Assembly (NCBI GenBank): GCA_963666565.1
Contig: OY762911.1
Span: 3,680,001-3,744,000, forward strand
Reading direction: 5' to 3'
Length of the DNA stretch: 64,000 nucleotides
Origin: Thermoanaerobaculia bacterium
GTDB lineage: Bacteria; Acidobacteriota; Thermoanaerobaculia; Multivoradales; Multivoraceae
A model generated the notes under the pieces. That model searched no databases and was not told the DNA's origin. It saw only the letters and a list, made by a program, of their open reading frames with translations. Both the position numbers and the translations under genes were made by a program. Below, piece after piece: positions 13,503-32,349 of this stretch (the stretch's first letter is position 1; every line of letters starts with the position of its first letter).

Positions 13503-13660
13503 GTCCCAATCGTCTCAGAAACGCTGCACCGGCGTCGCCCGGGACGAACCCCGAGACTCTGTCTCAGTGCTACCATCGCCGGCGTCACACTGGCCCATCG
13601 ATCCCGAGCGGTGCGGGCCTGGACGCCACGGTAAGCACACCAGACGACTGCCCGCACGCG

Positions 13661-14323
13661 ATGAGTTCGGTAGCGCCCCTGACCGTTGCCGCCCTGCAGG
13701 CCGAGGCGGCGGCGTTCGCCGAGTCGCTCCGCCAACAGCCTGTGCCCGAGCTCTTCGGCACGACCGACGGCAAGGCCCTGGGCACATGGATCGAATCGAG
13801 CTTCAACGAGTTTCTGGCCAGCCGCTACGCCTTCGACGCCGGAAGCGCGGCGCGGGGCATCGACTTCCCCGAGCTCGACGTGGATCTCAAGGCGACATTC
13901 CTGTCGCAACCCCAGTCATCCTGCCCGTTTCGAGACGCTTCGCAGAAGGTGTTCGGACTCGGCTACCACCTGCTCGTCTTCGTCTACGAAAAGACCGACG
14001 TCAACGAGACGCGAACGGCGCGCATCGAGGTCCGCCACCTCGTCTTCATCGAGCGCGAGCGGACAGCCGACTACCAGACCACGGCGGGAATCCGGGGCAT
14101 ACTCGAACGCAAAGGCAACCTCGACGACCTTGCTGCGTTCCTTGAGGAGCGCAACCTCCCGCTCGACGACATCGGTCGCCGGACTCTTGCGGAACGCATT
14201 CTCGCCCGCCCGCCGCGGCAGGGGTACATCACGGTCAGCAACGCCTTTCAGTAGCGGCTCCAGTACGGACATGCCATACGAAACGCCGGGGAGGTGGCCG
14301 GTGTCCACGATCTCCTCCGCTGA
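13661..14323 (+). pseudogene. Type II restriction endonuclease interrupted by an in-frame TAG at 14252-14254
   Basis: TDGKALGT, GIDFPELDVDLKAT (PD..DxK-like), QPQSSCPF; reads ..SNAFQ*RLQYGHAIRNAGEVAGVHDLLR* and overlaps the MTase start. The stop falls where I recall family members having Trp (TGG). Confidence 0.8.
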
Positions 14324-15935
14324 GGGCGGCGCCGGCCAAGGCAGGTCCGTTCGCGGCAAGCTGAAGAAGGAGCTAGGGGACTTCCAGACGCCGCTGGACC
14401 TCGCGCTGACGGCCACGCGCGTTCTGCGAGCGGCCGGCCACCGTCCAGCCCGGCTTCTCGAGCCCACCTGCGGCAAGGGTTCCTTCCTTCGCGCCGCCGG
14501 GGAGCAACTCGATAGTCCCCTGGAGATGTTCGGCATCGAAATCCAGTCCCGCTACGTCGAAGAGGCCCGCAAGACTCTTCGCGAGCATCCGCCTTCCGGC
14601 ATCGATTGGCGAGTCCAGTCTGGCGACATCTTCAGCTACGACCTGTGCGCCCTTCCCTGGCGCACGGCGGGACCCCTTCTGGTGCTGGGGAACCCACCAT
14701 GGATCACCCTTGCCGAGCTGGGCGCGATGAACTCCTCTCACGTTCCCCAGCGATCCAACGTCCGATCCGTGCGGGGAATAGACGCACTGACGGGCGACTC
14801 GAACTTCGACGTAGCCGAGTACATCTGGATGCGGCTTCTCACGGAACTGCGGGAGCAGTCGCCCACCGTCGCGTTGCTCTGCAAGACCTCGGTGGCGCGC
14901 CGCGTCCTCGTGCTCGCCAGGCGTCTTCAACTCCCGGTGGCGGAATCGGCGCTCTGGCGCATCGACGCCCAACGAGAATTCGGCGTCGCAGCCGACGCGG
15001 GCCTGTTCATGATCCGTCTCGATGGCGCCACCGGTCGCTACGACTGCAGTGTCTACGACTCCCTCGCGGCTCGCGCCTCCGTGACGACCATGGGCATCGT
15101 CGACGGCGGTCTCGTGGCCGATGTCGCTTCCCACCGGAAGTCGCGGGCCTTCGACGGTCGCTCGCCCATCGAGTGGCGTCAGGGAGTCAAGCACGACGCC
15201 TCGAAGATTCTGGAGTTGAAGCCCGACCCGGACGAGGGCCGCTGGCGGAACGGGCCAGGCGAGTTCGTCGACATCGAACCGGAGTGGTCGTTCCCTCTGA
15301 TGAAGGGTTCGGACATCTACGCCGGACGCGAACCGAGCCGGCGCATCCTCGTCACTCAACGGTCTCTCGGCGAGAATCCGCGCGGTTTGCGCCACATCGC
15401 GCCGAAGCTCTGGGCCTACCTGAACGACCACCAGGAGCACTTCGCGGCCCGGAAATCGTCCGTCTACCGATCGCGACCGAAGTTCTCGATGTTCGGCATC
15501 GGACCGTACACGTTCAGCCCCTGGAAGGTGGCGGTGTGCAGCCTCTGGAAGGAGCCCCGCTTCCGCGTTCTGCCTCCCAGCGGCGACCAGCCGGTTCTCT
15601 GCGACGACACTTCCTACTTCCTGCCATGCGACAACGCCGAGCAGGCAGCCATCATCGCAGCGATTCTGCGCAGTGACCCCGCCAGGAACCTGCTCAGGTC
15701 CCTGGTCTTCGTCGATGCGAAGCGGGTCGTGACCAAGAAGCTGCTCCAGAGAATCGATCTTCGGGCGATTCTGACCGGGTTTCGGGACCAGATCGTCGAG
15801 GACGCGGCCACGTTCTCAGTCGATTTCGCGCTATCGACCGATCGCGCAGGCGCCCTCGAAGCCGAGGCGGACTCCCTCCTTCGCCAATGGGCGCCGGCGG
15901 AGCGCTCTCTGCCGTTCGGCGAACCGACTTCGTAG
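14301..15935 (+). CDS. Amino (N6-adenine type) DNA methyltransferase of the RM pair
   Basis: GDFQTP, motif I LEPTCGKGSF, motif IV GNPPW; GTG 14301 preceded by GGAGG. Confidence 0.9.
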   Translation: MSTISSAEGGAGQGRSVRGKLKKELGDFQTPLDLALTATRVLRAAGHRPARLLEPTCGKGSFLRAAGEQLDSPLEMFGIEIQSRYVEEARKTLREHPPSGIDWRVQSGDIFSYDLCALPWRTAGPLLVLGNPPWITLAELGAMNSSHVPQRSNVRSVRGIDALTGDSNFDVAEYIWMRLLTELREQSPTVALLCKTSVARRVLVLARRLQLPVAESALWRIDAQREFGVAADAGLFMIRLDGATGRYDCSVYDSLAARASVTTMGIVDGGLVADVASHRKSRAFDGRSPIEWRQGVKHDASKILELKPDPDEGRWRNGPGEFVDIEPEWSFPLMKGSDIYAGREPSRRILVTQRSLGENPRGLRHIAPKLWAYLNDHQEHFAARKSSVYRSRPKFSMFGIGPYTFSPWKVAVCSLWKEPRFRVLPPSGDQPVLCDDTSYFLPCDNAEQAAIIAAILRSDPARNLLRSLVFVDAKRVVTKKLLQRIDLRAILTGFRDQIVEDAATFSVDFALSTDRAGALEAEADSLLRQWAPAERSLPFGEPTS

Positions 15936-15960: not shown

Positions 15961-17003
15961 CGAGCACGTAAGCTGGCTGGCCCACCAGCCACGTCGGCGA
16001 AGGAGGCGGTCCAGTGTCAACAAGCAGCAGCAATGCGACGGTCAGCCTGACGGACGGACCGATAGTCCTCGGGAACGGCATCGCCGGCGAGACGATCCCC
16101 ATCCCGACCGCCGATCCAACAGGCTTCCACCAGGCGATCTCCGAGCCGGACGCCATGCCGGCCACCGAGATCCTCGGCAGCCTGTTCGTGCCGCCCGGAG
16201 AGGGTCCGTGGCCCGTGGTGATCGTCGTGCCCGGGAGCCTGGGGGTCGCGCCGTCGCACGTCGCCAAGGCGGACCTGCTGACGGAGGCCGGCATCGCCTG
16301 TTGCGTGATCGACCCCTTCGGCACCCGCGGCGTGACCTCGACCGTCGCCAACCAGGCGCAGTACTCCTTCGCCGCCAGTGCCTGGGACGTGCTCGCAACC
16401 GCCACGGTGCTGGCCCGACGAGACGACATCGACGCCGCGCGCATCGGCGCCCAGGGTCACAGCCGCGGCGGGTCGGCCGTGCTGTCCGCCGCCTGCCTGG
16501 CGCCTCTGGTCGGCCCTGAACGGGCTCCCGACCTCGCCGCCGTGTACGCCGCGTACCCGTGGTCGGGCTTCCAGTTCCTGCGGCCGGACGTGGGGCGCAC
16601 CGTCGTGCGCTCCGTCATCGGCGACCTGGACGAGTGGTGCTTGCCGCTCCAGGTCCAGGCCCACATGCACGCGATGACCCTCTGCGGATGCGACGCCAGT
16701 TTCCGGCTCTTCCCCGACACGCACCACAGCTTCGACCGCGACACGCCGGTGGAACCGGTCCCCGACGCATCGACAAGTCCTGGGGCGCCGACGATCTACA
16801 TCCGCGAAGACGGCGCCCTCGTGCATCCGGTGACCGGCAAGGCCGACCCGGTCTTCACCGAGCGCGACGCGATGATCTACCAGGTCAAGTCGCCGTACGG
16901 CCGCAGAGGCGCCCGGATCGGCACCGCCGGCGACCAGGCGAGGGCGTTCCACGAGGACATGATGGCGTTCTGGACGGCCGCGCTCTCAGTCGCCCGCGTC
17001 TGA
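15961..17003 (+). repeat. Direct-repeat copy A (upstream region plus DLH-like gene); copy B at 23356-23747
   Basis: cgagcacgtaagctggctggccca vs cgagaacgtaagctggctggccca; gtgtcaacaagc in both; 16679-17003 closely matches 23423-23747. Confidence 0.9.
16014..17003 (+). CDS. Dienelactone hydrolase-like alpha/beta hydrolase
   Basis: Nucleophile GHSRGG, acid GDLDEW, His THHSFD; GTG start after AAGGAGG. Confidence 0.85.
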   Translation: MSTSSSNATVSLTDGPIVLGNGIAGETIPIPTADPTGFHQAISEPDAMPATEILGSLFVPPGEGPWPVVIVVPGSLGVAPSHVAKADLLTEAGIACCVIDPFGTRGVTSTVANQAQYSFAASAWDVLATATVLARRDDIDAARIGAQGHSRGGSAVLSAACLAPLVGPERAPDLAAVYAAYPWSGFQFLRPDVGRTVVRSVIGDLDEWCLPLQVQAHMHAMTLCGCDASFRLFPDTHHSFDRDTPVEPVPDASTSPGAPTIYIREDGALVHPVTGKADPVFTERDAMIYQVKSPYGRRGARIGTAGDQARAFHEDMMAFWTAALSVARV

Positions 17004-17128: not shown

Positions 17129-19153
17129 TCACGCGGGTACTTCCCGTAGTTGCTCGACGATCCGGAACCTCAGCTTCGCGCGAGGCTTCATGTTCGGGAT
17201 GGGGTTGAACTGAAGCCGGTAGTCCTTGGGAACGAGTTCGAATCTGAAGTGGCGGGCGATCATCAGGACGTTGATCGCCAGTTGCAGCTCTGTCTGTCGA
17301 AAACCGAGACACCTGTGCGTGCCCAGGCCGTAGGGCGCGTAGCCGGGAGTGCGGTGCTCCGCCCGATCCGGCAGGTAGCGGTCGATGTCGAAGGAGTGGG
17401 GGTCCGGGAAGACCTCCTCCATGTAGTGCGGCGCGGTCGAAGCGATGAAGAGCCTTGAACCGACCGGGATCTCGTGGTCCTCGATCACGCAGGCGTTCAT
17501 CACGTTCCGGATCGCCATGGGGACGACCGGGTACATCCGGAGGGTTTCCATGAGGAAACGGTGCGTGACGTCGATAGTGGAGGAGTTGATGGCCTGACCG
17601 TCCGGATCGCCGTTCTCGAAGAGTGCGTCGGCTTCGGCACGGATCTGCTCCCGCAGTTCCGGCTGCGTCGTCATGGCGTAGAGCGCGAAGCTGATTGCGT
17701 CGCCCACGTAGACGCTGGCAACCAGAGCCGCGGAGAGCTGGAAGCGCAGCGTGGTTTCCGGCACGAACTGCGGGTCGCTCGCGTGGAGCCCGAGCCAGTC
17801 GTCCGCCAGATCGCGCGGCTGGTCGATCCGCTGGGCCGGAGTGTGTGAGATCTGGATGCGTTCCAGGAGCCTGTCGACGGCCCTGGCCTTGCGCTTCATG
17901 CCGGGCGTGTTCATCATCATCTTCGGCAGGGCCCGCATGATGTGAACGGCCAGGGCGCGCTCCTTGTAGGCGACCAGTTCCCCGATGAGGTCCTGCGAGT
18001 CCACTCCGATGGTGAGTGGAGAGAGTTGCGCGTTGACCAGGAGACGGCAGGACCGGACCGGTATGACGTCGCCCACCTTCCAGTCCGCGAGGTACGTTCG
18101 AAGATATGCGTAGAGCCGATCGAGCTGTCCGGCGAGCCTGCCGCGTGAGTATCCGGGCGACATGGCCTTGCGGAGTCGAAAGTGATCGGCGCCGTCCAGG
18201 GAAGGCATGACGCCGGACGCGCCGTAGACCTTCTCGAAGTCGCTGAAGTAGTCCTTCGTTCTCAGGTGCGTGCGCCCGCGCTTGTTGACCCACTGATTTA
18301 CCTCGGTTCCCGCCAAGCAGATCATGCGCTCGCCGATGGGCGGGCGGAGCTCGAAGACGGGCCCGAACTCTTCGGCAAGACTGGCGAAGAGGGCCGGAAT
18401 GTTGCCGTCGCGGGCGTACTGGTTGCGCAGCAACTTCCGTAATGGAATGCCCGGCATCTTCTTCGTCAGGGCCGAGTGTCGGCGGATCGGCTCCGCGATG
18501 TTCTGGGCAACCGCTTCGGCGATCGAACGCCCGATCAGGTCCATCCTGCAGACCAGCGCGATCCGTTCCTCGACGTCTTCGTCGATCTGGAATATGAAGC
18601 GCAGAACGTCGCAGGCGTCGACGATGGAGAGAACGATGATGTCTCGCGGATCGGGGATTTCGTCGTTGAAGATGACGTCGGCGATCCGGTCCCGAATGAA
18701 CTGGGTCGCGGTGCCTTCTTCGGATTGGCCGTGCGCGTCCGCCTGCCAGCCGGTCCGCGGAAGGGTCCAGAAGTCGCCGTCGTGGTACTGGAGGACGTTC
18801 CGCTTCACGAGGCGGTCGAGGGTGAGGTCGATGACGGTCTCGGCCTGCGGCGCGAGACGTTCGATCCAGTAGCGGGCCGTCTGCTGGTTCGCCGCCTCGG
18901 CCAGTTCCCCGAGAATCGGATCGAGAGCCGGGTCTCCCGTTTCCGTCGCGTCGACGAGATAGAGAGCTTCCGGGTCCGTGTCGATGCGCGACTGAAGGGA
19001 GAGCTCGGCGAGAACCGCGCCGGCAACCGCGCAGTGCAGGTGCCAGCCGGGTACTTGATGGAACCAGCCGTTCTCCTCGTTGAGGAGCATCAGGATCAAC
19101 TCGTCCGTGAGAGTCAGCCCCTGGCTCGCGAGACCTGCGGAGGTGGGAGTCAT
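17129..19153 (-). CDS. GPP34/GOLPH3-like domain fused to cytochrome P450 (copy 1)
   Basis: N-terminus LTLTDELILMLLNEENG..AGAVLAELSLQSRID..TGDPALD..YWIERLA (GPP34-like); C-terminus ETLR (ExxR), FDIDRY, PYGLGTHRCLG (heme Cys). Confidence 0.88.
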   Translation of the reverse strand: MTPTSAGLASQGLTLTDELILMLLNEENGWFHQVPGWHLHCAVAGAVLAELSLQSRIDTDPEALYLVDATETGDPALDPILGELAEAANQQTARYWIERLAPQAETVIDLTLDRLVKRNVLQYHDGDFWTLPRTGWQADAHGQSEEGTATQFIRDRIADVIFNDEIPDPRDIIVLSIVDACDVLRFIFQIDEDVEERIALVCRMDLIGRSIAEAVAQNIAEPIRRHSALTKKMPGIPLRKLLRNQYARDGNIPALFASLAEEFGPVFELRPPIGERMICLAGTEVNQWVNKRGRTHLRTKDYFSDFEKVYGASGVMPSLDGADHFRLRKAMSPGYSRGRLAGQLDRLYAYLRTYLADWKVGDVIPVRSCRLLVNAQLSPLTIGVDSQDLIGELVAYKERALAVHIMRALPKMMMNTPGMKRKARAVDRLLERIQISHTPAQRIDQPRDLADDWLGLHASDPQFVPETTLRFQLSAALVASVYVGDAISFALYAMTTQPELREQIRAEADALFENGDPDGQAINSSTIDVTHRFLMETLRMYPVVPMAIRNVMNACVIEDHEIPVGSRLFIASTAPHYMEEVFPDPHSFDIDRYLPDRAEHRTPGYAPYGLGTHRCLGFRQTELQLAINVLMIARHFRFELVPKDYRLQFNPIPNMKPRAKLRFRIVEQLREVPA

Positions 19154-19179: not shown

Positions 19180-22100
19180 TTATGCGGCCTCAAGGGCAGG
19201 GCCGGGCGCCCGGCGCCGAGAGGTCAATCGCAGGTGAATCGTGTACAGAGCCGGTACGAGCAGCATCAGAAGAGAGGTCGTGATGGCGATGCCGCAGCCA
19301 AGCGAGGCGGCGAACGGGACGAGGAACTGTGCCTGGATCGACGGCTCGAGAATCAGGGGCGTGAAGCCGAGAAACGAGGTCAGGGACGTCAGCATGATGG
19401 GACGGAAGCGGCCCTTGGCACCTTCAACAATCGCGTCTCGCGCGGAGAATCCCTCCCGGAGTTCCTGATCGATGAAGTCGATCATCACGAGGGAGTCGTT
19501 CACGACGACCCCCGCGAGGCCGAAGAACGCCATGAAGGAGACCGCGCTCAAGGGGATCCCGAGGAACAGGTGACCCAGGATCACGCCGATGAACCCGAAC
19601 GGGATCACGGCCATGACGAGGAACGGCTTGGTGTAGGAGCGGAGGGGGATCGCCAGCAAGGCAAAGATCATGAGCAGGGCGATCGCAAACCCGCGATAGA
19701 GGGCGCCCAGGGAATCGAGCTGCTGCTGCTGCTCGCCCCCGAAGCTGTAGGTCAGGTTCGGATCGGCGCTCGTCAGTTCCTTGAGAATGACGTCCTCCAG
19801 AATGTCGTTCGCCTCCCCGCCTGAGATGACGGTTGGGTCCACATCCGCGGTAACCGTGACGACACGCTGGCCGTCCTTGCGTCTGGCGGCGGGCGGCGAC
19901 ATGCCTGAGCTCAGGGAAGCGACCCGACTCAGCGGTACTTCGGCCCCGCCGGGCGTGCGGAGGAGGTACCCCTCGACGTCGGTGACCGCGTTGCGATCGA
20001 CTTCGGGCAGACGCACATAGACCCGGACCTCTTCCCGGCCTCGCTGAACCCGCAACGCCTCTTCACCGAAGAACGCGGCTCGTGTCTGCGAAGCCAGATC
20101 GTCGAGGGTAAGACCGAGGGTTCGCGCTTCCGGCAGCAGCTCGAGCTGGAGTTCCGGGACGCCCGGTGTGTGATCCGAGCGGATGTCGAAGACCCCTCCC
20201 ACCGCACGGAGTTCATTGACGACGGAATCGGCGATCTCAGCCAGGCGCTCGGGATCGGGGTGGGACAGCACCGCCTCGACGGGGTTCCCCAGGTCGATGA
20301 TTTCGCCGCTGAAGGTGACGCCGCGAACGTAGGGCGGAACTCCCGCCTCTTCGCGCCATGCCTGAACGACATCTCCGCTGGTGATCTGCCGTTGCCGGGC
20401 ACCCAGCAGCTTGAAGTCGATCGTGGCGATGTTGGCTTCGGGATTCAGGGTCGGCTCCGGATTGAGTCCGCCGCCCTCGATTCGCGGCCGGTGTCCGACG
20501 GTTACGGTGACTCCGGAGAGCAGCGGAGGCGCATCGTCCGGTCGATCCCGGGAGAGTCGGTCGATCGCGCGGTGGCCGGCCGCCTCCAGTTCCCGGGCCA
20601 CCTCGTACGTCCGCTGCGCGGTCGTTCCGTCGGGCATCTCCAGGCTGGCGGTGGCGAAGTCGCCCTCGACGTTCTCCGCGAAGGTGGCAGGTACGATGCC
20701 GGCCGGTACCAGGGCAACGCAGATCACGAGCAGTCCGACGCCTCCCGCGATCGTCACCCCGGGGTAAGCCGTCGCGAAACGGAGGCCATGGTCCAGGGGC
20801 CCTTGCAGGAACCGGTTCAGCGCGCGATCCACGCCGCCCTGGATCCGTGCCGCGACCCGATCGACGGGGCCGGTCGGCTTCCACTCCGGACCGTGCAGGT
20901 GAGACAGGTGGCGGGGCAGCACCAGCGTCGATTCGACCAGGGAAAACAGCAGCATGGCGATCACGATGATCGGCAGCGCCCCCCAGACCTCGCCGATTCC
21001 ACCGGGGATGAAGAGCAGGGGGATGAACGCCACGACCGATGTGAGCACGGCGAAGGTCAACGGCACCAGGATGCGTCGCGTGCCGCGGATCGCAGCGGTG
21101 AGCCCCGGCGTGCCCCGCATGCGTTCGTAGTGGATGTACTCGGCGACGACGATCGCGTCGTCGACGACGATGCCGATGGCGAGGACGAAGGAGAACAGGG
21201 AGATGGCGTTGATCGCCAAGTCGAGCGCAAGCATGACGGCGAGTGCGCCGATGCCCGAAACGGCGAGGCCGACGGCGACCCAGAAGGCGATCCGGAGTTC
21301 GAGAAACAGACCGAGCGCGATGAGGACCAGCAAGAGACCCAGCGCGCCGTTCTTGAGGAGGATGCTCGCGCGCTCCGTGTAGGCATCGGACTCGTCATTC
21401 CAGACGGTCACTCCCAGGCCGTCCGGAAGCGAGGGAGTCAACTCGTTCTCCACGTACGCCAGGACGGCGTTGGCAACGCCCATCGCGTGCTCGTCTTCGG
21501 CTCTAAAGACCTCGATGAAGGCGGCGGGCTTGTCTTGGTGCCGGACGATCAGGTCGGCATTCTGAAAGCCGTCGTGGACCTCGGCGACATCCCCCAGGCG
21601 GACCGCCGTGCCGTCGCTCTTGCTGAGGAGGATGATGTCCTCGAAGTCCTGTTGCTCGTAGCGTTGGCCGAGAGTCCGTACCCGGACCTGCGATTCCCGT
21701 GTTTCGATGCTGCCCGCGGACAACTCCAGGGAACTGCGGCGAATCGGCGTGGCTACGTCACCGAGTGTGAGTCCGAGGGCTCTCAACCGCCGGAGTGGTA
21801 CTTCAACCGAGATTTCGTAGTTCCGCACGCCGCTGATGTCGACCTGGGAAACCCCGGGAAGCGAAGTGAGTTGATCCTCGATCTGGTAGGCGAGTTCCTT
21901 CAGGGATCGCTCGGAGACATCGCCGTAGAGGACGAGCCGGATCATGCTCTGGCGGTTCGTCATCTCCCGGAACAGGGGACGTTCGGCGCCGCCCGGGAAC
22001 GACTGGATGCGACCGACGGCGGACTCGATTTCGTCCTGCGCCTTGGCCATGTCCGTACCCGACTTCATCTCGACCCTGACGGATGCCATGCCGGGAGCCG

Positions 22101-22383
22101 CCACGGACTTGACCGCCTTCACGTCTTCCAGACCGCTGACCTCGTCCTCGATCTTGACGACGATGGACTCCTCCACCTCCTCCGGGGTCGCACCGGGGTA
22201 GGCCATCGTGACTTCGATGTGGTTAAAGGGGACGGTGGGCCACGCCTCCCGTTCGAGACCGGTCAGCGCCACGAGCCCCGCGGCGATGATGGCCCACATC
22301 AGCAGGTTGGCGGCAACACCGTTGCTCGCCATGTAGGTGATCGGTCCGGGCCGTTCGCCGTGGCTGCCGTCGTGGGAATTCAC
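19180..22383 (-). CDS. AcrB/AcrD/AcrF-family RND efflux permease (copy 1)
   Basis: YPGATPEEVEE, GIVVDDAIVV, GVVVNDSLV, RFRPIMLTS; 1067 aa. Confidence 0.95.
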   Translation of the reverse strand: MNSHDGSHGERPGPITYMASNGVAANLLMWAIIAAGLVALTGLEREAWPTVPFNHIEVTMAYPGATPEEVEESIVVKIEDEVSGLEDVKAVKSVAAPGMASVRVEMKSGTDMAKAQDEIESAVGRIQSFPGGAERPLFREMTNRQSMIRLVLYGDVSERSLKELAYQIEDQLTSLPGVSQVDISGVRNYEISVEVPLRRLRALGLTLGDVATPIRRSSLELSAGSIETRESQVRVRTLGQRYEQQDFEDIILLSKSDGTAVRLGDVAEVHDGFQNADLIVRHQDKPAAFIEVFRAEDEHAMGVANAVLAYVENELTPSLPDGLGVTVWNDESDAYTERASILLKNGALGLLLVLIALGLFLELRIAFWVAVGLAVSGIGALAVMLALDLAINAISLFSFVLAIGIVVDDAIVVAEYIHYERMRGTPGLTAAIRGTRRILVPLTFAVLTSVVAFIPLLFIPGGIGEVWGALPIIVIAMLLFSLVESTLVLPRHLSHLHGPEWKPTGPVDRVAARIQGGVDRALNRFLQGPLDHGLRFATAYPGVTIAGGVGLLVICVALVPAGIVPATFAENVEGDFATASLEMPDGTTAQRTYEVARELEAAGHRAIDRLSRDRPDDAPPLLSGVTVTVGHRPRIEGGGLNPEPTLNPEANIATIDFKLLGARQRQITSGDVVQAWREEAGVPPYVRGVTFSGEIIDLGNPVEAVLSHPDPERLAEIADSVVNELRAVGGVFDIRSDHTPGVPELQLELLPEARTLGLTLDDLASQTRAAFFGEEALRVQRGREEVRVYVRLPEVDRNAVTDVEGYLLRTPGGAEVPLSRVASLSSGMSPPAARRKDGQRVVTVTADVDPTVISGGEANDILEDVILKELTSADPNLTYSFGGEQQQQLDSLGALYRGFAIALLMIFALLAIPLRSYTKPFLVMAVIPFGFIGVILGHLFLGIPLSAVSFMAFFGLAGVVVNDSLVMIDFIDQELREGFSARDAIVEGAKGRFRPIMLTSLTSFLGFTPLILEPSIQAQFLVPFAASLGCGIAITTSLLMLLVPALYTIHLRLTSRRRAPGPALEAA

Positions 22384-22460
22384 TTGTGTTCCATGGGCTT
22401 ATGAAAGTAGCCGCTCTCCTCGTTGAGAAGCAGCAGGATCAGCTCGTAAGCCAGGTTCAC
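22380..22460 (-). pseudogene. 5' relic of a third GPP34-P450 gene fused to a short foreign tail
   Basis: GTG-NLAYELILLLLNEESGYFH-KPMEHK* aligns with LTDELILMLLNEENGWFH (copy 1) and FAEQLLLLLHSQDTGYFV (copy 2); its TGA overlaps the RND GTG. Confidence 0.8.
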
Positions 22461-24323: not shown

Positions 24324-24471
24324 CGCGGCACCGCCGCGGCAACACAGACGGCGGGGTGGAGATCCGGGATGGTCGCCCGGCGCAGTCGGCCCGCGACGAC
24401 CGCGTCCGCGCCGGCCGAGCCGGCGCCGTCGCGCTAGAATCGCCGAACCGTCTCCAGAATCTCCGGATACA

Positions 24472-27400
24472 GTGACTTCCAACGGCAGCAACCACGGCGA
24501 GCGGCCCGGGCCGATCGCTTACATGGCGAGCAACGGCGTCGCCGCCAACCTGTTGATGTGGGCGATCATCGCCGCGGGCGTCGTGTCGCTGACCGGCCTC
24601 CAGAGGGAAGCGTGGCCGGAGGTGCCGTTCTTCCAGATCGAGATCTCGATGGCCTACCCCGGCGCCACGCCGGAGGAGGTCGAGGAGTCGATCGTCGTCA
24701 AGATCGAGGACGAGGTCAGCGGCCTGGAGGACGTCAAGTCGGTCAAGTCGGTGGCGGCGCCGGGGATGGCTTCCGTCCGGGTCGAGGTGAAATCGGGCAC
24801 CGACATGGGGCGGGCGATGGACGAGATCGAGTCCGCCGTCGGCCGCATCCAGTCGTTCCCGGGCGAAGCCGAGCGCCCGCAGTTCCGGGAGATGACGAAC
24901 CTCCAGAGCATGATCCGGCTCATCGTCCACGGCGACGTCTCGGAGCGCTCGCTGAAGGAGCTGGCGCACCGGGTCGAGGACGAGCTCACGTCCCTCTCCG
25001 GCGTGTCCCAAGTCGAGATCAGCGGGGTGCGGAACTACGAGATCTCCATCGAGGTCCCGCTGCGGCAGCTTCGCGCCCTCGGACTCACCCTGGGCGACGT
25101 GGCGAGCGCGGTGCGCCGCAGTTCGCTGGACCTGTCCGCGGGCAGCATCGACACGCAGGAGTCGCAGGTGCGGGTTCGCACCCTCGGCCAGCGCTACGAC
25201 CAGCAGGAGTTCGAGGACATCATCGTCCTCAGCCGCGCCGACGGCACGGTGGTGCGGCTGGGCGACATCGCCGAGGTCCGCGACGACTTCCAGGACATCG
25301 ACCTGATCGTCCGCCACCAGAACCACCCCGCGGTCTTCGTCGAGATCTACCGCGCCGACGACGAGCAGGTCATGAGCGTCGCCAACGCCGTCCGCGAGCA
25401 CCTGGCGAACGAGATCGTCCCCTCCCTGCCCGACGGCGTCGGCGTCACCATCTGGAACGACGAGTCGCAGGTCTACGAGGAGCGCGCCGGCCTCCTCGTC
25501 AAGAACGGCCTTCTCGGGCTGCTGCTGGTGCTCATCGCTCTGGGCCTGTTCCTCGAGCTCCGGCTCGCGATCTGGGTCGCCGTCGGGCTCCTCATCGCGG
25601 GCATCGGCGCGCTGGCCGCGATGTTCATGCTGGACCTGGCAATCAACACGATCTCCCTGTTCTCCTTCGTCCTCGCCATCGGCATCGTCGTCGACGACGC
25701 GATCGTCGTCGCCGACAACATCCACGCGGAACGGAGACGAGGCACGCCGGGCGTCGCGGCCGCCATCCGCGGCACCCGGCGGATCGTGGTGCCGCTGACC
25801 TTCGCCGTCCTGACGTCCGTGGCGGCGTTCGTTCCCCTGCTCTTCATACCCGGCGGAATCGGCGAGATCTGGAGCGCCTTGCCGGTCATCCTCATCGCGA
25901 TGCTGCTGGTCTCGCTCGTCGAGTCGGTCTTCGTGCTGCCCAACCACCTGTCGCACCTGCGGGACCCGGCAAGCCCGCCGTCGAACGCCGTCGAGCGGTT
26001 CATCCGGCGGATTCAGGGCCGGGTGGATTTCGCGCTGAACCGGTTCGTGCAGGGCCCACTCGACAAGGGGCTCAAGTTCGCGACCGACCAGCCCGCCGTG
26101 ACGATGGCGGCGGCCGTCGGACTGCTCATCCTGAGTTTCTCCCTGGTGGCGGCGGGGATCGTTCCGACGACGTTCGCCGACACGATCGAGGGGGACTTCG
26201 CCACGGCCAGCCTCGAGATGCCGGACGGCACGACGGCCGAACGGACGTACGAAGTCGCGCGGGAACTGGAGGCGGCGGGCCACCGCGTGATCGAGCGGCT
26301 TTCGCGCGACCGGCCGCCGGACGCGCCGCCGCTGCTTTCGGGCGTCACCGTAACCGTCGGTCAGAGGCCGCGGGTCGAGGGCGGCGGCCTCAACCCGGAG
26401 CCCAGCCTGAACCCGGAGGCGAACGTCGCCACGATCGACTTCAAGCTGGTGGGCGCGCAGGAACGGGAGATCTCGAGCGGCGAGGTCGTGCAGGCGTGGC
26501 GCGAGGAGGTCGGCATGCTGCCCTACGTGCGCGGCATCACGTTCAGCGGCGAGGTGCTCGACCTCGGCAGCCCGGTCGCGGCGGTGCTCTCCCACCCGGA
26601 ACCGGACAAGCTCGTCGAGGCCGCCGAGACCGTGGTGAACGGCCTTCAGCGACTGGGCGGCGTGTTCGACATCCGATCGGACCACACGCCGGGCGTTCCC
26701 GAGATCCAGCTCGAACTCCGGCCCGAAGCGCGAACCCTCGGACTCACGCTCGACCAGTTGGCCGGACAGGCTCGCGACGCCTTCTTCGGTTCCGAGGCCC
26801 TGCGGGTGCAACGCGGCGGCGAGGAGGTTCGGGTCTACGTGCGGCTGCCCGCCGCGGAACGGAACGCCATCACGGACATCGAGGGGTACCTGCTCCGCAC
26901 GCCGAACGGGGCCGAGGTGCCGTTGTACCAGGTGGCCCGCCTGAACTCCGGCACCTCGCCGCCCGCCATCCGGCGCGAGGACGGTCAACGCGTCGTCACC
27001 GTCACTGCGGACGTGGACTCCACGGTGATCTCCGGCGGCGAGGCGAACGGAATCCTCGAAGACACGATTCTCGCCGAGCTCGTCGCCGCCGACCCCGAAC
27101 TGAGCTACAGCTTCGGGGGCGAACAGCAGCAGCAGATCGAGTCCCTGGACTCGCTGTACCGGGGGTTCGCGATCGCCCTCCTGCTGATCTTCGCGCTGCT
27201 GGCGATTCCGCTCCGTTCCTACACCAAGCCGTTCATCATCATGGCCGTCATCCCGTTCGGCTTCATCGGCGTGATCCTGGGCCACCTCATCCTGGGCATC
27301 GAGATGAGCGCGGTCTCCTTCATGGGGATCTTCGGCCTGAGCGGCGTCGTCGTGAACGACTCGCTCGTCATGATCGACCTTATCGACCGGAAGCTCAAGG

Positions 27401-27696
27401 AGGGCGCCCCCGCGCGGACCGCGATCGTCGAAGGCGCCAAGGGCCGGTTCCGCCCCATCATGCTGACCTCCGTGACCACCTTCCTCGGCTTCACGCCGCT
27501 CATCCTCGAGCCGGCTATCCAGGCCCAGTTCCTGGTGCCGTTCGCGGCGTCGCTGGGCTGCGGCATCGTCATCACGACGGCGATCCTGATGTTCGTCGTC
27601 CCGGCGCTGTCGTCCCTCCATCTGCACGTGACCGGCGGCCACCGCAGCGCCGCCGCAGCGCCGCCCGCCGAGGCGGCTACACAGCCCGCCGGCTAG
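24472..27696 (+). CDS. AcrB/AcrD/AcrF-family RND efflux permease (copy 2)
   Basis: GTG 24472; colinear paralog of 19180-22383 with the same motifs; its TAG shares CTAG (27693-27696) with the convergent gene. Confidence 0.95.
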   Translation: MTSNGSNHGERPGPIAYMASNGVAANLLMWAIIAAGVVSLTGLQREAWPEVPFFQIEISMAYPGATPEEVEESIVVKIEDEVSGLEDVKSVKSVAAPGMASVRVEVKSGTDMGRAMDEIESAVGRIQSFPGEAERPQFREMTNLQSMIRLIVHGDVSERSLKELAHRVEDELTSLSGVSQVEISGVRNYEISIEVPLRQLRALGLTLGDVASAVRRSSLDLSAGSIDTQESQVRVRTLGQRYDQQEFEDIIVLSRADGTVVRLGDIAEVRDDFQDIDLIVRHQNHPAVFVEIYRADDEQVMSVANAVREHLANEIVPSLPDGVGVTIWNDESQVYEERAGLLVKNGLLGLLLVLIALGLFLELRLAIWVAVGLLIAGIGALAAMFMLDLAINTISLFSFVLAIGIVVDDAIVVADNIHAERRRGTPGVAAAIRGTRRIVVPLTFAVLTSVAAFVPLLFIPGGIGEIWSALPVILIAMLLVSLVESVFVLPNHLSHLRDPASPPSNAVERFIRRIQGRVDFALNRFVQGPLDKGLKFATDQPAVTMAAAVGLLILSFSLVAAGIVPTTFADTIEGDFATASLEMPDGTTAERTYEVARELEAAGHRVIERLSRDRPPDAPPLLSGVTVTVGQRPRVEGGGLNPEPSLNPEANVATIDFKLVGAQEREISSGEVVQAWREEVGMLPYVRGITFSGEVLDLGSPVAAVLSHPEPDKLVEAAETVVNGLQRLGGVFDIRSDHTPGVPEIQLELRPEARTLGLTLDQLAGQARDAFFGSEALRVQRGGEEVRVYVRLPAAERNAITDIEGYLLRTPNGAEVPLYQVARLNSGTSPPAIRREDGQRVVTVTADVDSTVISGGEANGILEDTILAELVAADPELSYSFGGEQQQQIESLDSLYRGFAIALLLIFALLAIPLRSYTKPFIIMAVIPFGFIGVILGHLILGIEMSAVSFMGIFGLSGVVVNDSLVMIDLIDRKLKEGAPARTAIVEGAKGRFRPIMLTSVTTFLGFTPLILEPAIQAQFLVPFAASLGCGIVITTAILMFVVPALSSLHLHVTGGHRSAAAAPPAEAATQPAG

Positions 27697-29090
27697 CGCC
27701 TGGCCTTTCTCAACCTCCAGCCGTACATGATGCCGCCGTAGTGGTTGAAGGACGCCCGCGCCTCCGGGTCGTCGAAGGGGTAGTCCGCCCCGATCTGCCT
27801 GGCCGCGGCAAGGCCGGTGACGAAGCAGGTCTCCTGGCTGTTGATCAGCGTGTGGGCGCCGCAGTGCCAGGCGCCCTTCCTGCCCTGGATGAAGCGGAAC
27901 AGAGGCACGAGCAGCGCGACGTGGCGCACGTCGTGGACGACGTGCTGGAACCACCACCTCTTGACGATCTTGTTCTCGTCGATCCGGCTGACCGGGTTGT
28001 ACGTCACCAGGCAGGGCTTGTCGGACCCGTGGGCCCACGGCTGCTGGTTGTGCATGATGTACGTGATCTCGTAGTTGTCCGGCCGTGACCCGTACTGCTC
28101 GATGTGGTTGCTCCGGGTCTCCAGCGCCTTCACGTCGCTCTCGGGGAGCACCGACGCATCCGAGTGGACGATCGCGTGGTTGTGGAGCTCGCTCTCGTAG
28201 CGGATCGACGAGAGGATCCAGCGCTCGAGGAGCGACGGCTGGTCGAGGATCATCAGCGTCTGGTTCGCGTTGCAGGCGAAGATCACCTGGTCGAACGTCT
28301 CCTCTACCCCCTCCTCGTCCTTCACCACGACGCCGGAGGAGCGGCGATACACCTTCCGGACCGGCCGTTCGAGGTAGATCTTGTCCCGGAAGCCAGCCGA
28401 CAGGTTCTCGTAAATCCGGCGGGTTCCTCGGTCCCACGTCTGCATCGGCGTGGCGCGCTCGATGTCGAAGAACTCGAGGTACCTCGAGAAGAGCGACGCC
28501 GGCATGTCGAACACGTTCGTCGCCATCAGGAAGTTGACGAACATCGGCTTCAGGACCTTGTACCTGAAGTCGCCGGACAGGCCGTGCCAGTTGAGCAGCG
28601 TCCCCATGCTGACGTAGTTGTAGGGGTTGAGCGCGTTCAGGAGCTTCGACCGGGAACGGGTCAGCCGGCCGAACCGGTGAAGGCGCTTCAGGAGGCGCTG
28701 GAACTTCTCGATCTCGGCCTCAAGGTCCTCCCGGATGTCCGAGTCGAAGTCGTGGGCGTAGACTTGACCACGGTACTTGACGCTGTAGCTGAACCTGGTG
28801 TCGAGCAGCTCGATGCCGAACTCCTCCAGCAGCAGCAGGATGTGCCGGTACACCGACGGGATGCAGGCGGTGACGGAGATGTCGAACGGGATCGAACTGC
28901 CGTCTTCCTGCGGCATGTCGGCGGTGACCGCGTTGCCGCCGAGCTGAGCCTGGGCTTCGTACAGCCGGACGTCGAAGCGGTCCGGATGGCGGTGGAGCGC
29001 CCAAGCGGCGGCAAGGCCCGAGATGCCGCCGCCGACGATGGCGATCCGGCGCGGAGTCCGGCCCTCTCCATCTCCAGCAGCCCGTGACAT
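27693..29090 (-). CDS. FAD-dependent oxidoreductase (amine-oxidase/COG2907-like)
   Basis: IAIVGGGISGLAAA (Rossmann), YEAQAQLGG, IQGRKGAWHCGA..QETCFVTG. Confidence 0.85.
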   Translation of the reverse strand: MSRAAGDGEGRTPRRIAIVGGGISGLAAAWALHRHPDRFDVRLYEAQAQLGGNAVTADMPQEDGSSIPFDISVTACIPSVYRHILLLLEEFGIELLDTRFSYSVKYRGQVYAHDFDSDIREDLEAEIEKFQRLLKRLHRFGRLTRSRSKLLNALNPYNYVSMGTLLNWHGLSGDFRYKVLKPMFVNFLMATNVFDMPASLFSRYLEFFDIERATPMQTWDRGTRRIYENLSAGFRDKIYLERPVRKVYRRSSGVVVKDEEGVEETFDQVIFACNANQTLMILDQPSLLERWILSSIRYESELHNHAIVHSDASVLPESDVKALETRSNHIEQYGSRPDNYEITYIMHNQQPWAHGSDKPCLVTYNPVSRIDENKIVKRWWFQHVVHDVRHVALLVPLFRFIQGRKGAWHCGAHTLINSQETCFVTGLAAARQIGADYPFDDPEARASFNHYGGIMYGWRLRKARR

Positions 29091-29114: not shown

Positions 29115-31118
29115 CTAGGCGGCGGATCCGAGAGGATGCCGGTGCCCGGTGACCCGGAACTTGAACTTCTTGTTGACGCTGTTCTTGGGGAAGGGACTCA
29201 GCTTCAATCGGTAGTCGCGCGGCACCATCTCCAGTTCCAGGTGGCGGGCGAGCATGAGCACGTTCATGACCATCTGCAGACGGGTCCAGTTCGCCCCGCC
29301 GCATACGTGCGTGCCGACGCCGAACGGCATGTAGATGCCCGCGCCCTTGTGTTCGTTGCGCGGTTCCACGTAGCGGTCGATATCGAACTCCTGCGGTTCC
29401 GGGAAGTACCTCTCCATGTGGTGGGGCGCTGAGAAGGAGAGCATCACGGTGCTGCCGGCGGGTACCTCGATGCCCCCGATCTCGAAGGAGTTCATGGCGG
29501 TCCGCAGGTGTACTGGAACGACCTCGTGGAGCCGCAGCACTTCCATGACGAAACGGCGCGACGCATCGGTCGCGTCCGGCGTCAGGTCGGCCGCGGTCGG
29601 GTCTCCGCCCGCGAACAGCGCGTCCGCTTCGGCCACGATCCGCTCGTGGCAGCCGGGGTTCGCCAGCATCTCGTAGATGGAGAAGGCCACCGCGCTGCCC
29701 GTGTAGTGACCGGCGATGATCGGGGCGATCAACGCGAAGCCCAGGTCGGTTTCGGGCAGATACTGCGGATCCGCCTGGTGCAGCTCCAGCAGATCGTCGA
29801 CCAGGTCCCGGCGCCTTCCCGCGCGCTGCGCCTCGCTGTGGCTTGCGTGGATCAGGCCGTAGAGATCCAGCACGCGCTTCTTGCGGCGCTTCATCGCCGG
29901 AGTGCGCAGCGTGAACCTGGGCATCAGGCCCACCGTATGGACCATGAGCGCCCGGTACTCGAAGAGCAGCAGATCGTCGAGCAGCTCCTGAGAGGGATCG
30001 AAGCTCACGCTCAGCCTGGCGATCTGCGCTCCGACCAGCCGCTGGCAGGTCATCTCGACGGGAAGCGCCTTGCCCACTTCCCACTCCCTGAAGGAGGCCC
30101 GGCAAAGCTCCACGAGTTCTCCCAGCCGGTCTTCGACGACCTTGCGGGAGTTGCCGGCGCGAACCGCCCGGCGCATGCGAAAGTGGTCCGCCCCGTCCAT
30201 GCTGGCGATGGACCGCGCGGTCCCCCACTCCTGCTGGAAGTCCTCCAGGTAGTCGCGTGTCCGGAGGTGGAGGCGGCCCTTCTTCGCTACCCACCGGTTC
30301 ACCTCGACCCCGGCGAGCACGATGAGCCGCCTGCCCGGCAGCTTCCACTCGAAGACCGGTCCGACCTCCTCGGCCGTCTCCGCGAAGAACCTGGGCAGGT
30401 TCGCGGCACGGAAGGCCTTCGAGGCGAGAGAGTCCCTGAGCCCCACCGTCGGCATGGGCCGACGGCGGGCCGAGCGCATGCTGGCCGGCGGACGATAGGA
30501 ACTGCGCACTGCGGGACCGATCGCCCTGCCGATCAGATCCATGTTGCTGTAGAGCTCGATGAGCTCCTCGGCGGCCTCGTACTCCTCCGGCTCCATCATG
30601 GCCTTGAAGCCGTCGCAGTAGTGGACGAGGCCGATGATCACGATGTCCCTGGGGTCGGGGAACTCGTTGTCCAGGAGGATGCGGAAGATGCGGCCCTTGA
30701 TCTCCTCGCCCGCCCAGCCGTCCACCAGGGGATAGCGGCCGGTACGGGTCACCTTCTTCGAGAGGGACCAGAAACCGCCGGCATCGGACTCGAAGATGCC
30801 CTTCTCGACCAGCCTCTCGATCGCGTCGTCGCTGATCTGGTCGGCGCGCTGGGCGAGCCGCTCCACCCAGTACTGCGGCGGATGCACCTCTTCCTCGCTC
30901 GCAAGGTCCTCCAGCGAAGGATCGAGCAGGCCGTCGCCCGTAGGCGTCGTATCGACGACGGTCAGCGTCTCCAGGTCCGAGTCGATCCGGTCCTCCATGG
31001 CGAGGTCCATGAGCACGGCCCCCGCCAGGGCGCACGACATCCGCCACTCGGGAATCGGCACGAAGTACCCGGTGTCCTGGCTGTGGAGCAACAGAAGAAG
31101 CTGTTCGGCGAATCTCAT
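29115..31118 (-). CDS. GPP34/GOLPH3-like domain fused to cytochrome P450 (copy 2)
   Basis: MRFAEQLLLLL..AGAVLMDLAMEDRID..TGDGLLD..YWVERLA; EVLR, FDIDRY, PFGVGTHVCGG. Confidence 0.88.
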   Translation of the reverse strand: MRFAEQLLLLLHSQDTGYFVPIPEWRMSCALAGAVLMDLAMEDRIDSDLETLTVVDTTPTGDGLLDPSLEDLASEEEVHPPQYWVERLAQRADQISDDAIERLVEKGIFESDAGGFWSLSKKVTRTGRYPLVDGWAGEEIKGRIFRILLDNEFPDPRDIVIIGLVHYCDGFKAMMEPEEYEAAEELIELYSNMDLIGRAIGPAVRSSYRPPASMRSARRRPMPTVGLRDSLASKAFRAANLPRFFAETAEEVGPVFEWKLPGRRLIVLAGVEVNRWVAKKGRLHLRTRDYLEDFQQEWGTARSIASMDGADHFRMRRAVRAGNSRKVVEDRLGELVELCRASFREWEVGKALPVEMTCQRLVGAQIARLSVSFDPSQELLDDLLLFEYRALMVHTVGLMPRFTLRTPAMKRRKKRVLDLYGLIHASHSEAQRAGRRRDLVDDLLELHQADPQYLPETDLGFALIAPIIAGHYTGSAVAFSIYEMLANPGCHERIVAEADALFAGGDPTAADLTPDATDASRRFVMEVLRLHEVVPVHLRTAMNSFEIGGIEVPAGSTVMLSFSAPHHMERYFPEPQEFDIDRYVEPRNEHKGAGIYMPFGVGTHVCGGANWTRLQMVMNVLMLARHLELEMVPRDYRLKLSPFPKNSVNKKFKFRVTGHRHPLGSAA

Positions 31119-31161: not shown

Positions 31162-32229
31162 TCAGATGGCCCGCAACTTCGGCCGGCGCTCCGCCTCGAG
31201 TTCCGGATAGAACTGACGGCAATACTGGCGGTACTTCCCGATGGGGCCGTCGGCGCGGCACAGGCGTGGCGGAGACTTGTACCGCTTCCGCTCCCAGATG
31301 ACGATGTCCTCCTTCACGTAGCGCTTCTCCTGCCAGTTCGCGAACCAGTTCAGCAGCGGATGGCGCGCGCCCGTGGGCAGGAAGCGCAGCCCGGCGACGA
31401 AGTGCTTCGGCTTGCCGAGCCTGCGCACCTGGCTGACCAGCCTCATCTCGCAGAGCGTCCCGTCGACCGGCGTGGCCAGGACCCACAGCCTTGAGTCCAT
31501 CCCGATCGTCTTGTCGTGGAACTCGACCAAGGAGTACCCCAGCCCGTGGATGTGGGTGTCGGCCGAGACGCGGTTGACCAGGTATGTCAGCCCCATGACC
31601 TTCTGCACGGCCGTGAAGTCGAAGCGGCTCCTGAGGTACGCCCCGTCGACCGAGACGGAGCCGACCGGCCGCACGTCGTCGTAGCCGTGCGTGTAGCCCA
31701 GGTGTTCCACGTCCACGGAGTTCTCCGTCGTCTCCTGCGGATGGCCCCGGAACCGCAGGGTGCAGGACCGCAACTCGCTCCACTCGGCGCCGGCGGGCGG
31801 TTCGTCCGGCAGATGCCACTGCGACGAGCGACCGCCGGCGCCCCACCAGGCGAAGATCATGCCGAGGATCTCCGTCGTCTCGTAGGTCTGGAGCCTCGCG
31901 CCGCTGGGCGGCGGCGCATGCGGGGTCGCCACGCACCGGCCGGTCGCGTCGAACTCGAAGCCGTGGAACGGGCAGACCAGACAGCCGTCGCGGACCTTGC
32001 CGCCAACCGTGGGCCCCAGGTGAGAGCCCAGATGTGGACACGCCGCGTCGGAGACGCAGATGCGGCCCTCGTCGTCGCACCAGACGACGATCTCCTCGCC
32101 CAGCCACGTCCTCTCGATCAGCTTCTTCCGCAGAATCGCGTCGCGGCTCGCCACGAAGTACCAGCCCTCGGGGAAAGGCGGCAGTTCATCGTCTGGACTC
32201 AACGTAGGTCGATCCGGCTTCGAGATCAT
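31162..32229 (-). CDS. Rieske non-heme iron oxygenase/desaturase (Neverland/KshA-like)
   Basis: FPEGWY, CPHLG..CPFHG Rieske ligands, ENSVDVEHLGYTH and EDIVIW mononuclear-iron motifs; start ATG 32229. Confidence 0.88.
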   Translation of the reverse strand: MISKPDRPTLSPDDELPPFPEGWYFVASRDAILRKKLIERTWLGEEIVVWCDDEGRICVSDAACPHLGSHLGPTVGGKVRDGCLVCPFHGFEFDATGRCVATPHAPPPSGARLQTYETTEILGMIFAWWGAGGRSSQWHLPDEPPAGAEWSELRSCTLRFRGHPQETTENSVDVEHLGYTHGYDDVRPVGSVSVDGAYLRSRFDFTAVQKVMGLTYLVNRVSADTHIHGLGYSLVEFHDKTIGMDSRLWVLATPVDGTLCEMRLVSQVRRLGKPKHFVAGLRFLPTGARHPLLNWFANWQEKRYVKEDIVIWERKRYKSPPRLCRADGPIGKYRQYCRQFYPELEAERRPKLRAI

Positions 32230-32349
32230 GGGGTCAGCGTTCCTCTTCGGGTTGACACGCACCGGCGGTCAGGACACCAGGGTCGACCTCCCAGTCAACT
32301 CGCCCGCCTCTAAGGCCAACTATCCTAACAACATGGCTCCACCGGGGCT

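Follow-up and report, generated by a model that had tools for sequence, protein, structure and literature searches.

How a soluble bacterial cytochrome P450 reaches a substrate held in a membrane, and what role the GOLPH3 fold had before the Golgi existed, are the questions raised by a gene in a 64,000-nucleotide stretch of DNA from a Thermoanaerobaculia bacterium (contig OY762911.1, positions 3,680,001 to 3,744,000), here called the window. The gene, at 17129..19153 on the minus strand, encodes a P450 preceded by a GPP34 (GOLPH3/Vps74-fold) domain, and a second gene of the same build lies nearby. The original prediction took the N-terminal domain to be a soluble lipid-binding anchor in place of the transmembrane helix of eukaryotic P450s. 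We found that the two-domain architecture, the GOLPH3/Vps74 fold and a neighbourhood of putative lipid-tailoring and transport genes are conserved, that the residues with which GOLPH3 binds phosphatidylinositol 4-phosphate (PI4P) are lost, and that the domain is strongly acidic. We propose, with about as much belief as doubt, that the protein is a cytoplasmic P450 tailoring a sterol-type lipid within a mobile gene cassette, and that GPP34 docks it to the membrane or to a membrane-bound partner by a means other than PI4P binding. The two fusion genes and the parts of the first are as follows.

17129..19153, minus strand: GPP34-P450 fusion, paralog 1 ('P1 type'), an open reading frame (ORF) of 674 aa with the Pfam domains GPP34 and p450
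18506..19111, minus strand: GPP34 (GOLPH3/Vps74-fold) domain of paralog 1, residues 15-216, from Pfam, a genome profile search and Foldseek
18443..18505, minus strand: interdomain linker of paralog 1, about residues 217-237, where the per-residue AlphaFold confidence (pLDDT) falls below 50 only at 225-228
17132..18442, minus strand: P450 domain of paralog 1, about residues 238-674, from phmmer against the PDB and Foldseek
17699..17719, minus strand: I-helix segment ASVYVGD of paralog 1, residues 479-485, from alignment to CYP51
17309..17311, minus strand: codon of the heme-ligand Cys615 of paralog 1, C615 being invariant in two family alignments
29115..31118, minus strand: GPP34-P450 fusion, paralog 2 ('P2 type'), 667 aa, from Pfam, with the I-helix AGHYTG

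Both proteins resolve into the same two Pfam domains. In paralog 1, GPP34 (PF05719, curated cut-off 29.1 bits) covers residues 15-216 and profile positions 1-199 of 201 (E 4.9e-29, 102.3 bits), and p450 (PF00067) matches at E 1.2e-32; paralog 2, which is 42% identical to paralog 1 across 659 aa, gives GPP34 at 4-204 (E 6.4e-32, 111.7 bits) and p450 at 238-637 (E 6.8e-35). This confirms that a region of roughly 220 aa stands ahead of a complete P450 in both paralogs. The P450 of paralog 1 possesses the EXXR motif (ETLR) and the heme-cysteine loop YGLGTHRCLG, the loop being conserved in 79 of 79 P1-type orthologs. Three of the N-terminal motifs that had been read from the sequence, AGAVLxxL..RI, TGDxxLD and WxxRL, are exact in both paralogs, whereas the fourth, ELxLL, is matched only approximately (ELILM; EQLLLLL). 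The fusion is not a chance artefact, because all of the best 120 relatives, at 64-91% identity, carry both Pfam domains (120 of 2187 relatives with E<=1e-5 among 8000 scored candidates); the five named proteins among these 120 are all called 'cytochrome P450'.

The added domain is not one that supplies electrons. Neither paralog contains a redox-partner domain (FMN/FAD reductase, flavodoxin or ferredoxin), Pfam giving GPP34 and p450 alone, and the N-domain itself was ruled out as a redox partner, as it has no cofactor-family match in Pfam. The window genes resemble P450 BM3-type redox fusions in that a bacterial P450 is joined to a second domain, and the heme domain of BM3 ranks with their best fold matches, but their GPP34 domain is N-terminal, matches no cofactor-binding family and is neither reductase nor flavodoxin nor ferredoxin. 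Hydropathy windows revealed no signal-peptide-like or transmembrane-like segment in either paralog; the top 19-residue window of paralog 1 is a buried core helix of the GPP34 fold and contains an Asp and an Arg. The AlphaFold model of full-length paralog 1 reached a pLDDT of 88.4 and a predicted template modelling score (pTM) of 0.84, the sole low-confidence stretches being residues 1-9, 135-147 and 225-228, and this high pTM suggests that the GPP34 and P450 domains of the model are packed in a fixed arrangement.

The fold of the N-domain was examined with a separate AlphaFold model of residues 1-230 of paralog 1 (pLDDT 82.9, pTM 0.81). All eight Foldseek matches of this model to the PDB at E<=0.001 were GOLPH3 or Vps74, led by 9qpq_B (E 2.3e-8, TM-score 0.68/0.65), and the first match to anything else came at E 0.54. 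A profile built from 36 N-domains retrieved GOLPH3 (3kn1, E 3.8e-10) and Vps74 (E ~1e-8), and no other match was meaningful. With the single N-domain sequence as query against the PDB, GOLPH3 reached just E 0.13 and ranked below a chance UspA match, and the Foldseek search with the full-length model carries no information on the N-domain, the 46 matches within ranks 1-50 (of at least 500) all being P450s. Pfam, the profile and the AlphaFold/Foldseek comparison with GOLPH3/Vps74 all agree on the GPP34 fold that had been claimed, and at the level of the fold the claim stands. Compared with the solved structures (PDB 3kn1, 9qpq and 2zih; best Foldseek E 2.3e-8, TM-score 0.63-0.68), the fusion N-domain shares the fold, a hydrophobic beta-hairpin and an acidic surface, but it lacks the long N-terminal COPI-binding tail and is joined to an enzyme. 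The hairpin projects from the model, with strands at 122-124 and 128-130, and residues 128-131 (F, W, T, L) are hydrophobic in paralog 1.

The same comparison shows what the bacterial domain has not kept. In GOLPH3, W81, R90, R171 and R174 make up the PI4P pocket, which lies at the N-terminal end of helix alpha6, and the beta-hairpin is required too; the hairpin also mediates Vps74/GOLPH3 oligomers, Vps74 forming a tetramer (Wood et al. 2009, PMC2806290). By profile alignment (9qpq_A numbering), which is of moderate confidence for the last two positions, the equivalents in paralog 1 are V34, A44, E105 and I108 and those in paralog 2 are I, A, D and S, none of the four being kept in either protein; the short GPP34 protein of the same genome has V, A, K and Q. 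Across 53 diverse fusions the four columns are mostly V/I/L, A (41/53), D/E (38/53) and, at the R174 position, mixed. GOLPH3 residues 161-170, the loop preceding the pocket helix, have no counterpart in the fusion N-domain, whose models show a single continuous helix (93-117) where GOLPH3 has the loop and the pocket helix, and paralog 1 has no Lys or Arg between R99 and R114.

The domain is also extremely acidic. In paralog 1 the GPP34 domain has a net charge of -24 (21 Asp, 17 Glu, 1 Lys and 13 Arg in 208 residues) and in paralog 2 a net charge of -22, the median of the 53 fusions being -14, and the P450 domains have a median of +6. The acidic columns that are conserved correspond to E50, D58, D68, D78 and D171. 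With a charge of -24, docking at a membrane would therefore need the hairpin or a protein partner. GOLPH3 offers a precedent for both, in that its electronegative face, held over the membrane, binds the short basic cytoplasmic tails of Golgi enzymes and its hairpin inserts into the bilayer (preprint 10.1101/2025.06.26.661719). As judged from its residues and charge, the bacterial domain retains the GOLPH3 features for client capture and bilayer contact and has no phosphoinositide site.

For the P450 domain, both paralogs find their nearest solved sequence relatives among the CYP51 sterol demethylases (phmmer against the PDB, E 1.1e-23 for paralog 1 and 2.2e-25 for paralog 2). The top match of both is the Methylococcus capsulatus CYP51-ferredoxin fusion (PDB 6mcw/7jj1/7snm), which carries its ferredoxin at the C-terminus, whereas the window genes carry GPP34 at the N-terminus. 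Fold comparison does not separate CYP184A1, CYP51 and BM3 (Foldseek TM-score 0.81-0.82 on the target, 15-22% identity), and the best partial matches in NCBIfam, well under the cut-off, are terpene P450s. In P450 nomenclature, members of the same family share more than 40% identity; the P450 domain is 20-22% identical to CYP51 structures, and paralog 1 lacks the CYP51 I-helix signature, which places the domain outside CYP51. The I-helix distinguishes the paralogs, since paralog 2 (AGHYTG, against AGHHTS in CYP51) retains the Thr, and paralog 1 is without the I-helix Gly and Thr of CYP51 and without the acid-alcohol pair. In 79 of 79 P1-type orthologs the usual I-helix oxygen-activation motif (A/G)Gx(D/E)T is replaced by AS[VI]Y[LV]GD. 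Because the residues of oxygen activation have given way to a motif that is itself conserved, these sequences suggest non-standard chemistry for the P1-type P450s.

The genes that adjoin the two fusions in the window are of transport and oxidation types, among them two transporters of the resistance-nodulation-division (RND) class and an enzyme dependent on flavin adenine dinucleotide (FAD).

19180..22383, minus strand: RND1, AcrB-type RND transporter (Pfam ACR_tran, E 3e-158), ending 26 nt upstream of paralog 1
27693..29090, minus strand: FAD-dependent amine-oxidase-family enzyme (Pfam Amino_oxidase, E 8.2e-21), directly downstream of paralog 2
31162..32262, minus strand: Rieske oxygenase with a KshA_C domain (Pfam Rieske and KshA_C), directly upstream of paralog 2
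24472..27696, plus strand: RND2, second AcrB-type RND transporter (Pfam; GTG start), an inverted, diverged copy of RND1

The nearest PDB relatives of the window Rieske oxygenase are 3-ketosteroid 9alpha-hydroxylases (KshA, E 2.4e-19). To place these neighbours, we compared 80 orthologous loci from about ten phyla with 60-96% identity, the best 80 of at least 458 relatives confirmed in species-representative genomes. Neighbours were counted within 10 kb on either side of the fusion by tblastn with at least 50% query coverage, ORFs were clustered and their representatives annotated with Pfam, and eight of the 80 loci, although shorter than 15 kb, were retained in the denominators. A KshA_C Rieske oxygenase lies near the fusion in 72/80 loci, a methyltransferase resembling sterol methyltransferase (SMT; Sterol_MT_C) in 62/80 and the FAD amine-oxidase-family enzyme in 54/80, the last with a median identity of 80% across phyla. 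A transporter of either the RND or the MMPL class is present in 66/80, namely an AcrB-type RND pump in 33/80 (21 of these 33 having it as the gene directly upstream, in the same orientation) and an MMPL/Patched/sterol-sensing-domain transporter in 34/80. An HlyD-type partner was found in 20/80 loci, an ERG4/ERG24-family reductase in 14/80, an outer-membrane factor in 13/80 and an LppX/LprAFG-like lipoprotein in 10/80. Of the four main partner classes, 64/80 loci hold three or more and 36/80 hold all four.

Related gene clusters are known from sponge symbionts, whose SMTs methylate sterols at C-24 in vitro (Brown et al. 2023, PMC10070321). As described in the portions of that paper covered, its clusters share with the cassette the association of SMT-like and Rieske (sdmA-type) genes in sponge-symbiont DNA, but they serve de novo synthesis, with genes for an oxidosqualene cyclase and for a true homolog of ERG11 (E ~1e-70), whereas the GPP34-P450 cassette has transporters and no cyclase. 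The words 'P450' and 'Rieske' are absent from the main text of that paper, and 'P450', 'GPP34', 'Golgi' and 'Rieske' from three of its supplementary files.

Further sterol-related genes lie elsewhere in the genome, which is a single contig of 4.79 Mb and 97% complete. Its sole Sterol_MT_C gene lies apart from the GPP34-P450 cluster, right beside a second Rieske/KshA_C oxygenase gene of the same orientation (contig 1483032-1485350; 9032-11350 of the extracted region L095), and the SMT-like genes of the cassette are just ~37% identical to this SMT. One ERG4/ERG24 gene is present. For the squalene/oxidosqualene cyclases, the genome gave no match to SQHop_cyclase_C (PF13243), the N-terminal cyclase family not having been searched. 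By this gene content, the organism looks able to modify sterols but not to make them, and the lack of a cyclase match would therefore mean that the substrate is taken up. Separately, a third RND pump (contig 1818001-1838000, region L097) has as its neighbours two unfused P450s, an HlyD partner and a sulfotransferase, and the region also holds a squalene/phytoene-synthase-like gene and two mpaB/Lcp-type oxygenases; its genes make it another candidate locus for lipid tailoring and export.

The fusion itself is not new. The architecture has been described as 'GPP34_L' of sponge symbionts (Ferreira et al., Microbiome 2025;13:4, PMC11706023), 656 of 663 long GPP34 proteins being GPP34 plus P450. 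According to the portions of that paper covered, GPP34_L is restricted to sponge-symbiont genomes of many phyla, with 1-6 GPP34 copies per genome; it occurs in 53-100% of symbiont genomes in most phyla of Table 1 and in none of Planctomycetota and Poribacteria, and it is expressed in Aplysina metatranscriptomes. Because this architecture is already published, the window genes are additional members of a known family, which they match in architecture, length, multi-phylum spread and occurrence in several copies. A GPP34-Rieske fusion was reported in 2 genomes (PMC11706023), which fits a module serving the oxygenases of the cassette.

Our own searches extend this picture. Among 1.84 billion cluster representatives, 392 matched at E<=1e-30, and about 45 of the best 150 were full-length fusions with 24-54% identity. 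Tandem variants (P0134 and P0209) also occur, one being GPP34-GPP34-P450 (872 aa) and one GPP34-GPP34 without P450 (444 aa). The best 80 loci come from metagenome-assembled genomes, with Acidobacteriota at 88-96% identity and, at 60-67%, Chloroflexota/Dehalococcoidia, Nitrospirales, Latescibacterota, Gemmatimonadota, Binatia, Opitutia, Rhodothermaceae, Thermodesulfobacteriota and Paracoccaceae; such high identity across phyla implies that the gene has spread horizontally. Two sponge metagenome runs and one coral reef metagenome run hold contigs that are 93-95% identical to the window and span the junction of RND1 and the fusion, and several isolate names of the closest relatives mark what we take to be sponge samples. 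A search for short GPP34 proteins gave, among the matches listed, 120 of 188-398 aa that are 51-70% identical to the fusion N-domain, a set that includes no outgroup. At least 10 of the 120 are named 'partial' by their source, and many of them are probably fragments of long forms.

These data can be assembled into a mechanism. The distantly CYP51-like P450 would most likely oxidise or rearrange a sterol or a sterol-like polycyclic membrane lipid. It would act within a horizontally shared cassette for tailoring and transport that comprises GPP34-P450, a KshA-like Rieske oxygenase, the FAD oxidase, often an SMT-like enzyme, and an RND or MMPL/sterol-sensing transporter. The substrate would be imported and, presumably, derived from the host. 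GPP34 would be a non-catalytic docking module that keeps the soluble P450 on the inner membrane surface by inserting its hairpin, by holding a basic stretch that a membrane partner exposes to the cytoplasm, or by both; the partner is probably the co-encoded transporter, and the model for such a grip is the acidic face of GOLPH3 holding the basic tails of Golgi enzymes. The outcome would resemble functionally the transmembrane anchor of a microsomal P450, and the mechanism would be one other than phosphoinositide binding. It is the substrate class, the cytoplasmic location, and the mechanism and partner of docking that we infer here.

Several observations weigh against this explanation. Across the 80 clustered loci no ferredoxin or reductase gene is conserved in the cassette. 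SMT is absent from the cluster both in the window and in its closest relatives (L007, L008, L010 and L011), and for the window the sterol link depends on orthologs at a greater distance and on genes in other parts of the genome. CYP184A1 and BM3, which bind fatty acids, are level with CYP51 by Foldseek, and the nearest PDB entry of the FAD enzyme is LkcE (E 1.5e-33), a polyketide amide oxidase and not a sterol enzyme. As for docking, a domain of charge -24 should, by its composition, be repelled by anionic bilayers, which argues against direct binding to them. The loss of the PI4P pocket is itself qualified, because Arg occupies the R174-equivalent column in 21/53 family members and the mapping of R171 and R174 may shift by 1-2 residues after the deletion.

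Four other explanations bear on the domain or on its substrate. Closest to the original prediction is the possibility that GPP34 attaches directly to the head group of a membrane lipid, in the way that GOLPH3 does to PI4P, and so serves as a peripheral lipid anchor replacing the transmembrane helix of eukaryotic P450s. The GOLPH3/Vps74 fold, the N-terminal position and the retained hydrophobic hairpin agree with it, as do a substrate that is likely a membrane lipid of sterol type, the membrane transporters encoded alongside, and the Arg found in the wider family at the R174-equivalent and, in 15/53 members, at column 37. We nevertheless consider direct lipid anchoring unlikely, since none of the four pocket residues is kept in either paralog, the pocket-forming loop is deleted and the net charge of -24 is unfavourable for the anionic membranes of bacteria, which to our knowledge generally lack PI4P. 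The predicted anchor is partly supported, in that the hairpin, the likely substrate and the transporters favour some membrane role, but lipid binding in the form known from GOLPH3 is not favoured, and the replacement of a transmembrane anchor would be an analogy. A domain that handles substrate or regulates the enzyme, by binding the sterol-like substrate, gating the access channel of the P450 or oligomerising through the hairpin as in the Vps74 tetramer, would agree with the single confident body of the full-length model (pTM 0.84, linker low only at 225-228), with the retained oligomer hairpin and with the tandem GPP34-GPP34(-P450) variants; yet no lipid-binding cavity has been described for GOLPH3, and we regard this role as rather improbable.

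The published proposal is of another kind, namely that GPP34_L is a secreted effector that binds host PI4P and blocks phagosome maturation (PMC11706023), the P450 playing an unspecified part in the interaction with the host. Restriction to host-associated bacteria and expression in sponge metatranscriptomes (PMC11706023) speak for it, together with the eukaryote-like fold and an ankyrin-repeat gene nearby in the window. The proposed secreted PI4P binder stands against residue, charge and neighbourhood data that point to lipid metabolism: the proteins have no PI4P pocket and no signal peptide, and the gene is tightly embedded in metabolic and transport cassettes. A heme-thiolate P450, moreover, normally requires heme loading and reductant in the cytoplasm. 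For these reasons together, the missing pocket, the missing export signal, the cofactor needs of the P450 and the operon context, we think secretion very improbable. The word 'sterol' occurs 0 times in the main text of the paper, which treats neither sterols nor the P450 family and gives flanking genes for the short form alone, and an analysis of the PI4P residues was not met in the portions of PMC11706023 covered; nor are loss of the PI4P site and extreme acidity mentioned in those portions, though no literature search was aimed at these two points.

It is also conceivable, though in our estimate doubtful, that the cassette acts on a hydrophobic compound other than a sterol (hopanoid, carotenoid, terpenoid, fatty-acyl or polyketide-like) and that the sterol annotations are family-level look-alikes. 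That would be in keeping with the equal standing by fold of oleate-binding CYP184A1, BM3 and CYP51, with the partial NCBIfam matches to terpene P450s far under the cut-off, with LkcE as nearest relative of the FAD oxidase, and with both the ~37% identity of the cassette SMT-like genes to the genome's own SMT and the lack of an SMT in the window cluster. Against it, five sterol-typed families co-occur, Sterol_MT_C, ERG4/ERG24, KshA_C, the sterol-sensing-domain MMPL transporter and the CYP51-like P450, and symbiont SMTs methylate sterols in vitro (PMC10070321).

The docking explanation preferred here can be carried further, into a version that we would call a long shot. GPP34 would be an ancient adaptor for membrane-protein tails that builds a bacterial sterol metabolon on a transporter, with non-canonical chemistry in the P1 type. 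Its acidic face would clamp the P450, or rarely a Rieske oxygenase, to the cytoplasmic side of an RND/MMPL sterol transporter, host sterols would be captured, remodelled and re-exported, and the P1-type reaction might be independent of reductant, for example the rearrangement of a sterol peroxide. If this were true, part of the inventory of unusual sponge sterols that serves as a biomarker would be made by symbionts and not by the sponge itself.

The matter reaches beyond one genome. GPP34_L is among the most widespread gene signatures of sponge symbiosis, and the secreted PI4P-binding effector is the sole idea of its function published in the sources covered; the alternative argued here is a docked P450 in a cassette for tailoring and transport of sterol-type lipids that moves between phyla. 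It bears on who makes and who modifies sponge sterols, and thereby on the debate over the 24-isopropylcholestane biomarker (Brown et al. 2023, PMC10070321). Full-text literature searching found no published link between GPP34-P450 and sterol-type clusters; it is this placement, and not the fusion, that we did not find in the literature.

The cluster in the window has been rearranged. RND1 and RND2 form an inverted repeat (19222-22384 / 24471-27633; 3163 nt, 79% complementary), and the 3' end of a dienelactone-hydrolase-like gene is duplicated (16678-16977 vs 23422-23721; 300 nt, 90% identical). The closest relative, L011, has the order hydrolase-RND-fusion1-FADox-fusion2-Rieske, relative to which the RND1-fusion1 segment is inverted in the window and the second, diverged RND copy occupies its old place. 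Upstream of the RND1 start at 22383, positions 22401-22445 on the minus strand encode a 15-residue stretch, ELILLLLNEESGYFH, that ends a short ORF. It nearly equals the conserved N-terminus of GPP34-P450 proteins (consensus EELILMLLNEESGYFHQV), and by this resemblance appears to be what a rearrangement left of the 5' end of a further fusion gene.

Other genes of the window lie at the margins of the cluster. A sulfatase (32350-33765, minus strand) and a decarboxylase dependent on pyridoxal phosphate (34251-35660, minus strand) come after the Rieske gene on the same strand; relatives with more than 89% identity were found in 8/80 loci for the sulfatase and 4/80 for the decarboxylase, all of them among the loci closest to the window (L004-L011), and both are probably local neighbours outside the cassette. 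An ankyrin-repeat protein of 526 aa (37896-39476, minus strand; Pfam Ank_2, E 4.5e-67) belongs to a eukaryote-like class typical of sponge symbionts. On the other side of the cluster, 13361-15935 on the plus strand holds ORFs of 297 and 749 aa that have no Pfam match and a lower GC content (0.657); a segment of the 749-aa ORF resembles the N6-adenine methyltransferase motif (NPPW), and the region is possibly an island of the restriction-modification type beside the cluster.

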